From Polyangiales bacterium (lineage in GTDB: Bacteria; Myxococcota_A; Polyangia; Polyangiales; Ga0077539), in the NCBI GenBank assembly GCA_044229975.1, contig JBGARZ010000001.1, positions 896,001-960,000 on the forward strand: a DNA stretch of 64,000 nt, read 5' to 3'. Below, piece by piece: positions 28,195 through 32,414 of this stretch. Positions within the stretch are counted from its first letter, which is position 1; each line of letters opens with the position of its first letter. Position numbers and translations under genes: made by a program. A model generated the notes under the pieces. It had not been told where the DNA came from, did not search any database, and saw only the letters and a program-made list of their open reading frames with translations.

Positions 28195-29190
28195 TCAGCT
28201 CTGCGGAACCATCGCGACGTCCGCCCCCTCCGCGAGGCGGAAGCGCACGCCGCCGTCGTAGCGGTCGAGCAGCGCGCCGCCGTCGATGTCCGCGCGCACG
28301 AGGTCTTTGCGGGTGCGAAAGACCAGCGTGTTGAGCTCGACGCGGCCGCCCTGCTTGCCGCCCGGCCACACCCGCGGGATGAGCACCTCGTCGGGCACGA
28401 GATCACCCGCCGCGTGCGGTGCCGGAGGGAAGAGCAGCGTCGCCACGAGGTCGCAGCGTCGATCGGCGAGCCAGAGCGTTCGCTCCCACGAACCGTAGCC
28501 CACGGTCAGTCGCCCGCCGCGCGGAAGAAATTCCAACCGTGCCGCCCGCGGCAGCTCGACCCCCGACTCCGGGGCTGTCGCGGTCTCAGGCCCCGTCGAC
28601 GCCGACACCAGCCGAAGCGATTGACCGAGGTGACGCACCACGGTGCCCGAGCGCACGGCCACCACCGCGGCCTCCTGCAGCGGGCCGTCGCAGTCCACCC
28701 CCGCGACCCCCGTCTCCATCACCAGCGCACGCTGCACCAACGAAAACGTCAGCGCCGCCGCTGCCCATCCGGGGATGTGCAGGTCGTCGCGCTCGTCGCC
28801 GCCCACCGTGAAGGGGCTCTCCGCGATGCGATAGAACGCCCCCGCCGCCGACTCGACGCCCCACACACAATCCGCGCGAACGACCTTCGGCGCCGGCGTG
28901 CTCACCACGCGAAAGGCCCGCCCGCACACCGCGAGCCCGTCGCCATCTCGCAGCGTCGCGACGGTCTGCACGGGCGCGTCGTTGACCCGCACCGGCGCGC
29001 GTCCGAGCACCATGAGCTCGACGCCGTCATCCACCGGTCGCAGCAGGAGCTGATGTCGGCTGACCCGCGAGTCGGGCAACACCACCTCGCAGTCGGTGCT
29101 GCGCCCGAGGAGCAGCCCGCCGTGCCGGACGAGCACCCGGCCGAGGTCACCCTGGAGCCAGTACTGGCGGGCCTGGTCGCGTTCGCGCAT
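28195..29190 (-). CDS. FHA-domain protein with a second degenerate FHA and C-terminal OmpR-like winged helix
   Basis: LLLGRSTDCEVVLPDSRVSRHQ; FTVGGDERDDLHI; LVPDEVLIPRVWPG...LNTLVFRTRKDL. Confidence 0.75.
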   Translation of the reverse strand: MRERDQARQYWLQGDLGRVLVRHGGLLLGRSTDCEVVLPDSRVSRHQLLLRPVDDGVELMVLGRAPVRVNDAPVQTVATLRDGDGLAVCGRAFRVVSTPAPKVVRADCVWGVESAAGAFYRIAESPFTVGGDERDDLHIPGWAAAALTFSLVQRALVMETGVAGVDCDGPLQEAAVVAVRSGTVVRHLGQSLRLVSASTGPETATAPESGVELPRAARLEFLPRGGRLTVGYGSWERTLWLADRRCDLVATLLFPPAPHAAGDLVPDEVLIPRVWPGGKQGGRVELNTLVFRTRKDLVRADIDGGALLDRYDGGVRFRLAEGADVAMVPQS

Positions 29191-29213
29191 CGCCAAGCGA
29201 TATCAACCGACGG

Positions 29214-30761
29214 TCAGTAGTGCACGCCCGACGCGATCTGCCGCGAGCCCGGGAACCCGGTGCCCGCCCACACGCCGTCGAGGAGGTCCATGGCGAGTCC
29301 CCAGCGACGCACGGCCGTCCGACCGCGCGCCCCGTCGAGGTCGTAGCGCACATCGCGCAGCGACGTGATGACCGCGGGCCGGAAGAACATCGCGTGTGCC
29401 AGCTTCACGCGGAAGAAGTCCTCGGGAGAGACCAGCGCGTCACGGTCGAGTCCGCGCACTGGTCCCTCCATGGGCATCGCCTGGCGCAGACGCCACGGCA
29501 TCTTCTCCAACGCGATGGCCGCGAAGCTATGGTGATCGGCCGTGTGGAAGGTCGACACCGTGCAGAGGTACGTCGCCACGGCGCGCGCGAGCACACCGCC
29601 CCGCGCGATGGCGCCGCCGTCGGGGTAGCCCGGCAGCCACGCGGCGATGTGGTCGGCCCAGGCGCGCACGTGCACGTCGTCCGCGGCGACGCCGTCGAGC
29701 GCCTCGGCGACGAAGCCCGTCCACGCCTGCAACCACACCTGACGAAAGCGCCCGTACGAAACATGCGCTCCGGTGAAGAGGTCGCCGAAGCGCCACGCGG
29801 GCCACGCCGGGTTGCGCGCGACGCCCTGTCGACCGGCGACCACCATGCGGTGCATCCCCTCGGTGGTGTACGGGAAGGGGTTGTAGAGCTCGCGCTGCGA
29901 GTTGTGGATGCTCGATCGTCGGTGATGGATCACCGACTCGTGGAGCCCGAGGGTGAAGCGGGTGTGGGGTTCGATGAGCCGCCGTACCGGGTGACGCCGC
30001 GGGAGCACGGAGCGCGTGACGGCGTTGATGACGTCGGCCGGGAAGTGCAGCCGCGGATGCGCCGCCGTGACAAGGCGCACCTGCGCCGATTGCAGCGCGT
30101 ACCAGCGAGCGAGCCGCCACGCGTCGCCCTCGTCGGGCGTGACGATGCGCGCGTGCACCCGGATGGCCGCGACGGACCACGGGTCGCCCTCGCGGCGCAG
30201 CAGCACGACCACGGGCGCGGTGTGGACGCCCGGCAGCAGCTCGTCGAGCGCCGCGACGCTGAAGTCCATCGTGGCGTACACGCCGGGTGAGCGCGCCATC
30301 AGCGGATGGAAGTCCTCGCTCGGGGCGCACTCGTCGGCGAGCGCGACAAACTGCCCGAAGCTCGTGGTGGTGAGCAGCGAGGCGAGCTCGCCGTCGTCGA
30401 CGTCGACGAGTCGTGGCCCGCGCAGGGCCTGCGACGCCGCGGCGGGCACCTCGCTGACCATCTGCCGCAGGTAGCGCGAGACGATGAAGCGCACGTAGTC
30501 GACCCGATCGCCCGCCGGGACATTGAGCACCGGCGCATAGAACTCCGGGTCGATGACCGGCTCCTGCGGCCACGGCCCTCGCACGCCCCGCGGGTGCCGC
30601 GGAGCAGGCGCGTCGATGCGCCCCGCGCCCCAGGGCATCGGGCTGAGGCGCGGCGAGTCGGTCCACGTGGTGGGGGCGCGGAGGAGCGACCCCATGAGGG
30701 AGAGCGCGTCGTCGGAGGCCGGGCTGTCGGGTGCGGTGGTGGTGCGGGCGGGGGCGTTCAT
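29214..30761 (-). CDS. Divergent lipoxygenase-like protein
   Basis: WRLAR, HPRLH-x17-HP...-x8-H (RRHPVRRLIEPHTRFTL), STFHTADH, C-terminal IASGVHY map onto the LOX metal-binding landmarks. Confidence 0.75.
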   Translation of the reverse strand: MNAPARTTTAPDSPASDDALSLMGSLLRAPTTWTDSPRLSPMPWGAGRIDAPAPRHPRGVRGPWPQEPVIDPEFYAPVLNVPAGDRVDYVRFIVSRYLRQMVSEVPAAASQALRGPRLVDVDDGELASLLTTTSFGQFVALADECAPSEDFHPLMARSPGVYATMDFSVAALDELLPGVHTAPVVVLLRREGDPWSVAAIRVHARIVTPDEGDAWRLARWYALQSAQVRLVTAAHPRLHFPADVINAVTRSVLPRRHPVRRLIEPHTRFTLGLHESVIHHRRSSIHNSQRELYNPFPYTTEGMHRMVVAGRQGVARNPAWPAWRFGDLFTGAHVSYGRFRQVWLQAWTGFVAEALDGVAADDVHVRAWADHIAAWLPGYPDGGAIARGGVLARAVATYLCTVSTFHTADHHSFAAIALEKMPWRLRQAMPMEGPVRGLDRDALVSPEDFFRVKLAHAMFFRPAVITSLRDVRYDLDGARGRTAVRRWGLAMDLLDGVWAGTGFPGSRQIASGVHY

Positions 30762-30827
30762 CGGTCCTCCGGGAGCGTCGGTGACTGCGGGGAGTCACTT
30801 CGCACCTGGCGGGCCGCGCGGCCGATG

Positions 30828-31613
30828 TCAGCCGATATCAACCACCGACTGGCGGCCCTTCACGCGCGAGATCACGCGCCCCACGAAGAAGGGCCCCATG
30901 CGGTCCATGAACTCGCCCGTCTGGCGGGTCTTCCGCATCGACTGGATGACGTGCGAGAGCGGGTGCAGCTCCTTGCCGACGAGCCCGATGACGAAGTCGT
31001 TGTCGTTGCTGTCGAGGCCGTGGCAGGCGAGGCGGATGTCGTGCGCCAGGTCCTTCTCCCCGTACGCGCGGCCGATGGTCCCGTGCTCGCGGAGGATGGC
31101 GCCCTGCTCCTTCGGATCGAGCCGACTGAAGGCCCCGGTGCGCTTGAGCGGGTACCACACCGCCCAGTCCCAGCCCTCGTGCATCACGGTGTCGCGCGGC
31201 CGATCGAGCAGCCAGTGGGTGAGGTCGCTCTCGTACCCGGTGCTGTACGTTCGCCCGAACATCGAGAACTCCGGCCGCGACCGCCACGGCGCCACGTCCG
31301 TCGCGCGGTTGCACTCGCGCACGATGTCGTGGACGCGGGTCACGAAGTGCGCCGGGTCTTCGCTGAAGGTGAGCAACCCGAGGCCCTGCGGGTGGTTGGC
31401 GTCGGCGTAGAGCACCGCCGGCACGCCGCCCAGGGTCAGCGCCTCTTCGAGCTGGTGCAACGCCGCGTCGAAGTTGGACGGGTGCTCGAACACTAGGAGC
31501 TGCATGAAAAGTCGCCGGTTGCTCACCTGCGGGACGCCGTCCTTGGGCGCTCCCCGCTCGCTCACGTCCACCGCCGGGAGATCGCCTGGGCCGTGCTTCG
31601 TCGCGTCGCTCAT
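30828..31613 (-). CDS. Chlorite dismutase / coproheme decarboxylase (Cld/ChdC) family heme protein
   Basis: VWYPLKR...EQGAILREHGTIGRAY, GLD..DFVI, MRKT, GPFFVG. Confidence 0.85.
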   Translation of the reverse strand: MSDATKHGPGDLPAVDVSERGAPKDGVPQVSNRRLFMQLLVFEHPSNFDAALHQLEEALTLGGVPAVLYADANHPQGLGLLTFSEDPAHFVTRVHDIVRECNRATDVAPWRSRPEFSMFGRTYSTGYESDLTHWLLDRPRDTVMHEGWDWAVWYPLKRTGAFSRLDPKEQGAILREHGTIGRAYGEKDLAHDIRLACHGLDSNDNDFVIGLVGKELHPLSHVIQSMRKTRQTGEFMDRMGPFFVGRVISRVKGRQSVVDIG

Positions 31614-31661: not shown

Positions 31662-32414
31662 TCAGGAGGCGGACGAACGGGCGGTCGACGCGCGTTCACG
31701 GTCTTCGCTCACGCAGAGCGCGAGGTAGAGGCAGTCGAAGACGAAGATCATCGTGTAGAGGAAGTACGTGAACGAATACGTCGTGGGCTCGACGACGTGC
31801 GGATGCGTGCGGAGGTGGCCGTCGACAAACTGCGCGGGCCACCACGTCGCGAGGAAGAACGACCCGGCGAGCGTCCCGATGAGCTTGAGCCACGCGACGT
31901 GGGTGGAGAGCCCGACGCGCCCCGGCCGCGAGAGGTGGAAGAGCGGGTACGCGATGCTCATGACGAGGTTCATGGACATCGACGAGGTGACGCCCTTGAG
32001 GTCATTGAAGTAGAGCGTGAACGTGTAGAGCGCCCCGGCTGCGGTGCCGAGCGAGAGGGCGAGCAGCGGATAGAACCAGCGCTCCAGCAGCGGCACCACC
32101 TGCGCCGCCTTCCCGTAGCGGAACAGCTGGTAGAGGATGACCACGTCGAAGACGAACCAGAGGCGGTTGCCGTAGTGGAAGAACCAGTGCAGCCGCGCGT
32201 CGGTGAGCTCGAAGGAGTAGATGGCCTCCCACACCACGTTGAGCACGATGCACGGCCACGGGAGCCCGTAGGTCTTCTCCTTGAATCCCCGGTAGATGAT
32301 GATGGCGTAGGCCGCCGTCCAGCCGAGGTACATCACCGCCCCGATGGCGACCTGCAACGGGGAGAACCCCGGCTGCCGCATGAGTTCGTCCCAGATGCGT
32401 TCCATGCGAGGCAT
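31662..32414 (-). CDS. Pyr4/PaxB-like integral-membrane terpene cyclase homolog
   Basis: WTAAYAIIIYRGFKEKTYGLP...LNVVWE (catalytic Glu position), WFVFDV, WLKLIGT, FVFDCLY (second acidic residue); about 7 TM. Confidence 0.75.
   Translation of the reverse strand: MPRMERIWDELMRQPGFSPLQVAIGAVMYLGWTAAYAIIIYRGFKEKTYGLPWPCIVLNVVWEAIYSFELTDARLHWFFHYGNRLWFVFDVVILYQLFRYGKAAQVVPLLERWFYPLLALSLGTAAGALYTFTLYFNDLKGVTSSMSMNLVMSIAYPLFHLSRPGRVGLSTHVAWLKLIGTLAGSFFLATWWPAQFVDGHLRTHPHVVEPTTYSFTYFLYTMIFVFDCLYLALCVSEDRERASTARSSAS

Follow-up and report, generated by a model that had tools for sequence, protein, structure and literature searches.

A divergent protein with a predicted lipoxygenase fold from a Polyangiales bacterium and its family of bacterial relatives with an aromatic C-terminus

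Introduction

In the standard cycle of lipoxygenases (LOXs), hydrogen abstraction is followed by O2 addition (PMC13319228). The metal ligands of the superfamily are three fixed His and, in addition, one residue that is either His, Asn or Ser (PMC13059375). For instance, rabbit 15-LOX has four His ligands together with the terminal carboxylate (PMC11011848). The terminal ligand is usually Ile and very occasionally Val, according to a 2026 review (PMC13059375). Canonical LOXs are described as sharing, without exception, a Leu clamp whose loss cuts activity 20–100-fold (PMC12383934), while the Coffa position, the Ala/Gly stereo site, was Ala in all the sequences of a bacterial LOX survey (bioRxiv 2022.06.21.497025). 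The oxygen channel reportedly becomes narrower when the residue at this site is bulkier (PMC13319228).

The best sequence scores for the family described here belong to mammalian 12/15-LOXs (rabbit 1lox/2p0m, pig 3rde, and human ALOX12 8ghb/8ghc), which have the same fold as its predicted model (Z 28–29, approximately 437 residues, 13–14% structural identity), and of which the rabbit and pig enzymes share a His at the Asn site. Unlike these enzymes, the protein has no beta-barrel domain, possesses H-x3-H where they have H-x4-H, Val at the Coffa site, and Tyr at the terminus where they have Ile, lacks the second-shell Gln after the fourth His, and appears to be without the invariant Leu clamp. 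Bacterial iron LOXs, including CspLOX2 from Cyanothece (5med), PA-LOX from Pseudomonas (4g32), the LOX of Enhygromyxa salina (8x8f), and myxobacterial LOXs, share the single-domain fold (Z 25–27.5). They are found in the same genomes as the family, and genes of both kinds occur together with PfaA-like genes and are often located close to STAND kinase/cyclase genes, whereas the family forms a separate, long-stemmed clade and the protein is without a PF00305 match. Among 21 ordinary bacterial LOX loci, the Coffa residue is Ala in 18, the clamp Leu is present in 19, and the terminal residue is Ile, Val, or Leu in all 21.

Fungal manganese LOXs (Mn-LOXs; Magnaporthe 5fno and Gaeumannomyces 5fx8) share the fold (Z 26) and have an H-x3-H pentamer, as does the family. 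They end in Val (PMC13059375), their class I members keep the Leu clamp, and the fungal LOX genes examined carry secretion peptides (PMC12383934), whereas the protein ends in Tyr, has no hydrophobic leader, and appears to be without the clamp. Epidermal LOX3 and the fungal class II "Cys-clamp" LOX-like proteins set a precedent for metalloproteins of the LOX fold whose pocket is altered and whose dioxygenase activity is low, the class II proteins retaining fold and metal with poor-to-no LOX activity (PMC12383934). To the extent of the tests made, neither is related to the family, and the likeness is one of function.

The gene and its motifs

The gene is located at 29214..30761 on the minus strand of the window, which is the whole stretch of 64,000 nucleotides analysed, and all features within it are given on that strand. 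Its ORF (30761–29214) is intact and encodes 515 aa followed by a TGA stop, with a ribosome-binding-site-like GGAGG (30766..30770, minus strand) placed 4 nt ahead of the ATG. By translation, models, and fold, the product consists of the catalytic domain only. The motifs on which the earlier note had based its proposal of a divergent LOX, namely HPRLH, H-x17-H-x8-H, STFHTADH, and IASGVHY, are all present in the translation, with STFHTADH beginning at residue 403, TLGLHESV at residue 270, and IASGVHY forming the C-terminus. The H-x4-H form does not occur in the 515-aa protein, which has instead H235-P-R-L-H239 (30045..30059), the first two predicted metal ligands, at a spacing one residue shorter than that of iron LOXs (a one-residue gap against pig and human 12-LOX). 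H257 and H266 (29964..29993) are the x17/x8 His of the LOX signature and correspond to conserved His that are not known to be ligands in LOXs.

The spacing of these four His (H-x3-H-x17-H-x8-H) occurred in 17 of 20,000 shuffles; it is also carried by 122 of the 34,340 six-frame ORFs of the host genome and is weak taken alone, so the case rests on homology and not on spacing. A scan of 19-residue windows starting at residues 1–25 found no hydrophobic N-terminal stretch (best Kyte–Doolittle mean 0.24, compared with a whole-protein maximum of 1.43), in agreement, as far as hydropathy goes, with the absence of a signal peptide that had been noted before.

Fold and active-site anatomy

The PF00305 profile, against which the earlier note had proposed to check the protein, found no match at E≤0.1 in a Pfam search. 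With the single sequence as query, most PDB matches were LOXs (best E 9e-4), and searches with family profiles reached LOXs at E 4e-9 and 4e-18. Profile–profile comparison with ordinary bacterial LOXs gave a probability of 100 and E 5e-45 over 448 columns. In the Atlas, the protein is placed among clusters with partial PF00305 cover at a recognition value under the threshold. Models predicted from 53 and 104 sequences had pLDDT values of 92.7 and 95.4, respectively, and every match listed by Foldseek for the first model was a LOX. Realignment of the predicted model to LOX catalytic domains gave Z 28.9 and an rmsd of 2.8 A over 437 residues at approximately 14% identity. The LOX-like fold that had been proposed is thus predicted, and by these models, the protein is a member of the LOX structural superfamily.

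In the profile alignments, H235 and H239 coincide with the first two iron ligands once a single residue is deleted from the stretch that separates them, and H406-x3-H410 aligns to the H-x3-N/H of LOXs, where pig 12-LOX has H-S-S-N-H. The segment H406-T-A-D409-H410 (29532..29546) therefore holds the third His ligand, an invariant acid, and a His at the Asn/His site in these alignments, and the four His conform to the three-His-plus-His/Asn/Ser pattern, as the mapping of the earlier note had it. The His at the Asn site is indeed present as H410, but its supposed novelty did not hold, because rabbit 15-LOX already binds its metal with four His and a terminal carboxylate and pig 12-LOX has the same residue. 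In almost every row of the structural alignment, residue 515 is superposed on the final residue of the LOX chain, among them those of both Mn-LOXs, human 12-LOX, and soybean LOX-1. The carboxylate of this Y515 (29217..29219) is predicted to be the fifth ligand from the protein, so the Tyr reported earlier does occupy the place of the terminal Ile. From the fold and the sequence alignment together, the four His and the C-terminus would meet at one metal.

The region from V277 to I285 (29907..29933) comprises the end of the arch helix and a remodelled loop at the clamp site. V277 sits 38 residues past the second His, at the Coffa position, as had been suspected of this Val. Four residues beyond the Coffa site, where ordinary bacterial LOXs have the clamp Leu, the register is ambiguous: the counterpart is R281 in an ungapped alignment with CspLOX2 or S284 with a three-residue insertion, and neither is Leu. 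Column 284 is Val in 85 of 143 relatives; none of columns 278–285 is an invariant Leu in these 143, and columns 278 and 285 are mostly aliphatic. The deeper model, from 104 sequences, has the arch helix at 270–279 and a loop at 280–283, while the helix of the first model is shorter (273–277). The second-shell Gln, three residues past the Asn/His ligand, is replaced by Tyr/Phe, and the hydrogen bonding lost with it may have been taken over by the invariant acid at 409. The apparent loss of the Leu clamp, the loss of the second-shell Gln, and the invariant D/E409, all read from aligned sequences, were overlooked in the earlier note.

Size, conservation, and phylogeny of the family

A word-based search identified 61 relatives. 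A search with the full profile raised this to 809 representatives for E≤0.001 and to 209 for E≤1e-30 (clusters at 50% identity), of which the best 150 of the 209 were taken on. Conservation was assessed in 143 of 204 proteins that aligned in one piece to the profile end, a set that favours normal ends. In this set, H235, H239, and D/E409 are kept in 143/143 and H406 and H410 in 142/143, while H257 and H266 are kept in 131/143 and 135/143 (position 266 is Phe in eight of these full-length relatives). V277 is Val in 131/143 and Pro236 is present in 115/143, giving the motif H-P-x-x-H-F-P. The ligand positions are kept across 23–88% identity, as expected for a working metal site. The family signature thus consists of H-x3-H, H-x2-D/E-H, Val at the Ala/Gly stereo site, the lack of an invariant Leu at the clamp, and a terminal Tyr/Phe.

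The terminal residue is Tyr/Phe in 139 of the 143 proteins of the profile-end set and, without that filter, in 156 of 165 long pentamer-bearing proteins. Of the nine remaining ends, five are unrelated tails and four carry the same motif with Ser, His, or Gly as its last residue. An aromatic terminus is thus a strong preference of the family, with exceptions. Atypical ends include IQS/VQS (P0067, P0118, L056, and L076), IQH (P0138), and LQG (P0160). In addition, one family gene (L011:7773-9505) is split over two frames, by a frameshift or a sequencing error.

A tree was built from 64 bacterial rows (39 of 92 family loci, two distant pentamer rows, and 23 ordinary LOXs) and takes in no eukaryotic, hence no fungal, sequences. 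All 41 pentamer rows lie on one side of a branch with SH-aLRT 100, and the stem from the ordinary LOXs measures 1.04 changes per site, with long branches flagged as meeting at its base. By these sequences, the family is a large distinct clade beside the ordinary bacterial LOXs, in keeping with the new subfamily that had been suggested. PF00305 matched 4 of 53 family members at E≤0.01, and members are named "hypothetical protein" except for one from Alteromonadaceae named "lipoxygenase". No longer fused form was seen among the 7,983 candidates scored, which is weak evidence. Nor did an informative extra domain turn up in the 21 family proteins that are longer or atypical.

A sister lineage (L159:3072-4436, plus strand, and L160:621-1985, minus strand) of approximately 455 codons has H-x3-H and a terminal Ile. 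Ser replaces its third His, and it lies tail-to-tail with an ORF that matches ordinary LOXs, to which it may be a partner that has no catalytic function or binds its metal through other ligands.

A literature search, with supplements and a 2022 nine-cluster review of bacterial LOXs outside its scope, found no account of the clade. No clade member appears in the available text of PMC6612559, bioRxiv 2022.06.21.497025, PMC4019311, and bioRxiv 2022.12.07.519351, and PMC7159879 nowhere mentions lipoxygenase.

Proposed activity

The favoured reading, to which slightly less than an even chance is given, is that the protein would be a stand-alone cytoplasmic LOX-type dioxygenase with one non-haem metal, probably iron, converting PUFAs to hydroperoxides. 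H235, H239, H406, and H410, together with the C-terminal carboxylate of Y515, would bind the metal as in rabbit 15-LOX; M(III)-OH would take a bis-allylic hydrogen from presumably host-made PUFAs, and the resulting radical would take up O2. In pocket and oxygen path, the protein would differ from known LOXs through Val277, the reshaped clamp loop, D409, and the aromatic terminus, and for that reason, the position and chirality of the product are not predictable. In the cell, the enzyme might serve oxylipin signalling like other LOXs of bacteria, which is the weakest step. The alteration of all three of the Leu clamp site, the Coffa residue, and the second-shell Gln weakens this reading. No evidence for isoprenoid substrates, which had been listed for assay, was found in this analysis.

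A wider reading, doubtful at present, is that the clade is a third branch of LOXs with a site of four His and an aromatic carboxylate, tuned by Asp, having independent manganese use or novel products and being nearly invisible to Pfam. In that case, counts of LOX-bearing bacteria would miss the clade because Pfam is nearly blind to it, and if the members are active, estimates of LOX-bearing bacteria would need revisiting. More than 200 sequence clusters break the terminal-residue, clamp, and Coffa rules together yet keep the metal ligands, which makes the clade a natural test of what determines the metal, the access of oxygen, and the stereochemistry of LOXs and a possible source of new biocatalysts.

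Carriers, PfaA-like genes, and the possible isomerase alternative

The named carriers belong mostly to Myxococcota, with one from Actinomycetota and one gammaproteobacterium, and isolates with members include Enhygromyxa salina SWB005 and Alteromonadaceae bacterium (TVZ41526.1). The distribution is patchy: members were found in at least 6 of 401 genomes of the phylum, a lower bound as three candidates per genome were scored, and in 6 of 24 other genomes of the host's family.

The host has a PfaA-like gene above the TIGR02813 cut-off, although a TIGR02813 match alone does not prove PUFA synthesis, and 12 desaturase-family matches above cut-off. This PfaA-like frame of 2,199 codons is followed by a PKS-like frame of 2,862 codons, and the two (G000:C10:43195-53342) make up a probable PUFA-synthase cluster. 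At E≤1e-200, a PfaA-like match was present in all six carriers (seven of seven with the distant G097) vs 124 of the 401 phylum genomes, and in 16 of 22 genomes with ordinary LOX only. These genomes are related to one another, however, half of the six carriers being from a single family rich in PfaA. The Actinomycetota carrier (G401) had no PfaA above cut-off.

The host encodes a second family member and four ordinary LOX genes. The paralogue (L014:1390-3075, G000:C33) has H-G-M-L-H, ends in IQY, and belongs to another part of the same sub-clade, with an ion-channel/solute-binding protein among its neighbours. The ordinary LOX loci of the host (L157, L156, and L158 on G000:C32, C19, and C39) include a tandem pair adjoining a kinase–STAND–GAF–cyclase gene, a LOX adjoining a catalase-like ORF with a kinase–STAND gene beyond, and one that is divergent; tandem pairs or triplets were also seen in L129, L135, L138-L140, L142, and L144-L146.

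The best-grounded rival, unlikely in itself and drawn by analogy, is that the protein acts mainly as a hydroperoxide isomerase or peroxidase like epidermal LOX3, its reduced metal yielding epoxy-alcohols or ketones, because Val277 would block oxygen access. Narrowing at the Coffa site does promote such activity: the G316A variant of an Mn-LOX gains isomerase activity as its O2 channel is narrowed, and eLOX3 is without the channel (PMC13319228). Val, bulkier still, is nearly fixed at this position, and the four ordinary LOX genes of the host could provide the hydroperoxides. Against the isomerase, the gene adjoins no ordinary LOX gene, either in the window or at the paralogue, and five carrier genomes had no PF00305 match although the same search was positive in the host. 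These five (91–97% complete where stated) had been chosen for no earlier LOX match; PfaA is above cut-off in three of them, in pieces in one, and absent from the Actinomycetota genome, and their lack of a PF00305 match fits the self-standing enzyme of the favoured reading.

Genomic neighbourhood and the possibility of another role

Directly upstream of the gene on the same strand lie a chlorite-dismutase-family gene (30828-31613, minus strand) and then a Pyr4-like gene of a transmembrane terpene-cyclase family (31662-32414, minus strand), and an FHA-domain gene (28195-29196, minus strand) follows 17 bp downstream. By eye, the unannotated C-terminal part of the FHA gene product has the look of a winged-helix DNA-binding domain. 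The Pyr4-like and chlorite-dismutase-like pair was beside none of 12 genome loci of relatives, and the FHA gene was found only in L001, so an operon of these genes was rejected. Close relatives have no lipid-metabolism neighbour in common.

A match to a profile of STAND (AAA_16) ATPases, which are fused to a histidine kinase, a GAF domain, a Ser/Thr kinase, or a cyclase of class III, was found within 3 kb in 24 of 97 family loci, or 23 of 97 after a weak 35-bit match was dropped (L083, L084, L092-L094, L097, L098, L105-L107, L110-L112, L116-L118, L120, L121, L124, L125, L127, L152, and L154). Ten of the matches had seeded the profile, and several are near-duplicates. The host background is 21 such ORFs in 10 Mb. 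The same neighbour, confirmed with Pfam, lies within 3 kb of 10 of 25 ordinary LOX loci, or 10 of 24 once L150 is counted as a distant pentamer member (L133, L135, L138-L140, L142, L144, L146, L156, and L157). A family-specific STAND link was ruled out by this control; as ordinary LOXs show the link at least as strongly, it is a general trait of bacterial LOXs, common to distant family members and ordinary myxobacterial LOXs, which supports a LOX-like role and says little on this gene, whose own sub-clade has a STAND neighbour in none of 19 loci (L001-L012, L049-L054, and L155, several with short flanks).

These neighbours bear on a further rival, likewise improbable, in which the LOX scaffold oxidises a non-PUFA lipid or other unsaturated substrate, or senses metal or lipid peroxide for signalling neighbours. 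The Ala/Gly site, the Leu clamp, and the aliphatic terminus are all altered together across the clade, the stem from ordinary LOXs is long, clamp-altered fungal proteins show little or no LOX activity (PMC12383934), and nearly a quarter of family loci have the STAND neighbour. However, the strength of that link in ordinary LOXs and its absence from the sub-clade speak against this rival, as do the lack of a signalling-domain fusion (weak evidence) and the upstream genes that relatives have not kept, while carriers track PfaA-like genes.

In addition, a neighbour with an RHS and a Scabin/ADP-ribosyltransferase-like domain (L089:2-1000) and one with a T6SS Tle1-like phospholipase domain (L069:5491-7173) look like unrelated bacterial conflict genes.

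Choice of metal

H235–H239 matches the spacing of the fungal Mn-LOX pentamer, and the earlier note had taken this as a pointer to manganese. Sequence scores clearly favour iron LOXs, as a family profile reached them at up to E 4e-18 vs 2e-5 for two fungal Mn-LOXs, and a second profile ranked Mn-LOXs near the bottom with iron LOXs ahead. Structure scores favour iron LOXs slightly (Z 28.9 for the best iron LOX vs 26.4 and 26.1 for Mn-LOXs, a small gap), and the 68-residue His region alone found no Mn-LOX at E≤10. The pointer was therefore not upheld for this protein, which has no hydrophobic leader, and kinship with Mn-LOXs was rejected, since these searches favoured iron LOXs or found nothing. 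Because iron LOXs and Mn-LOXs do not differ in the types of ligand and each is able to bind iron or manganese (PMC13059375), the motif cannot assign the metal, and because the hallmarks of both canonical iron LOXs and fungal Mn-LOXs failed, the protein is filed under neither class.

The least probable rival, a manganese LOX that reached H-x3-H independently of fungi and whose Mn potential would be tuned by D409 together with the additional His, has in its favour the fungal-type spacing and a rebuilt second shell, the shell that tunes Fe vs Mn competence (PMC13059375), but has against it the lower rank of Mn-LOXs, the missing terminal Val and secretion peptide (PMC13059375; PMC12383934), the distinct H-P-x-x-H-F-P context, and a motif uninformative between the two metals.

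A candidate bacterial precedent for the pentamer, "His376 + His372" in the available text of PMC6612559, was set aside as a probable misprint for His367, because the Coffa Ala410 given there lies 38 residues after His372. Across the sequences compared, the simplest reading of H-x3-H in both bacteria and fungi would be convergence.
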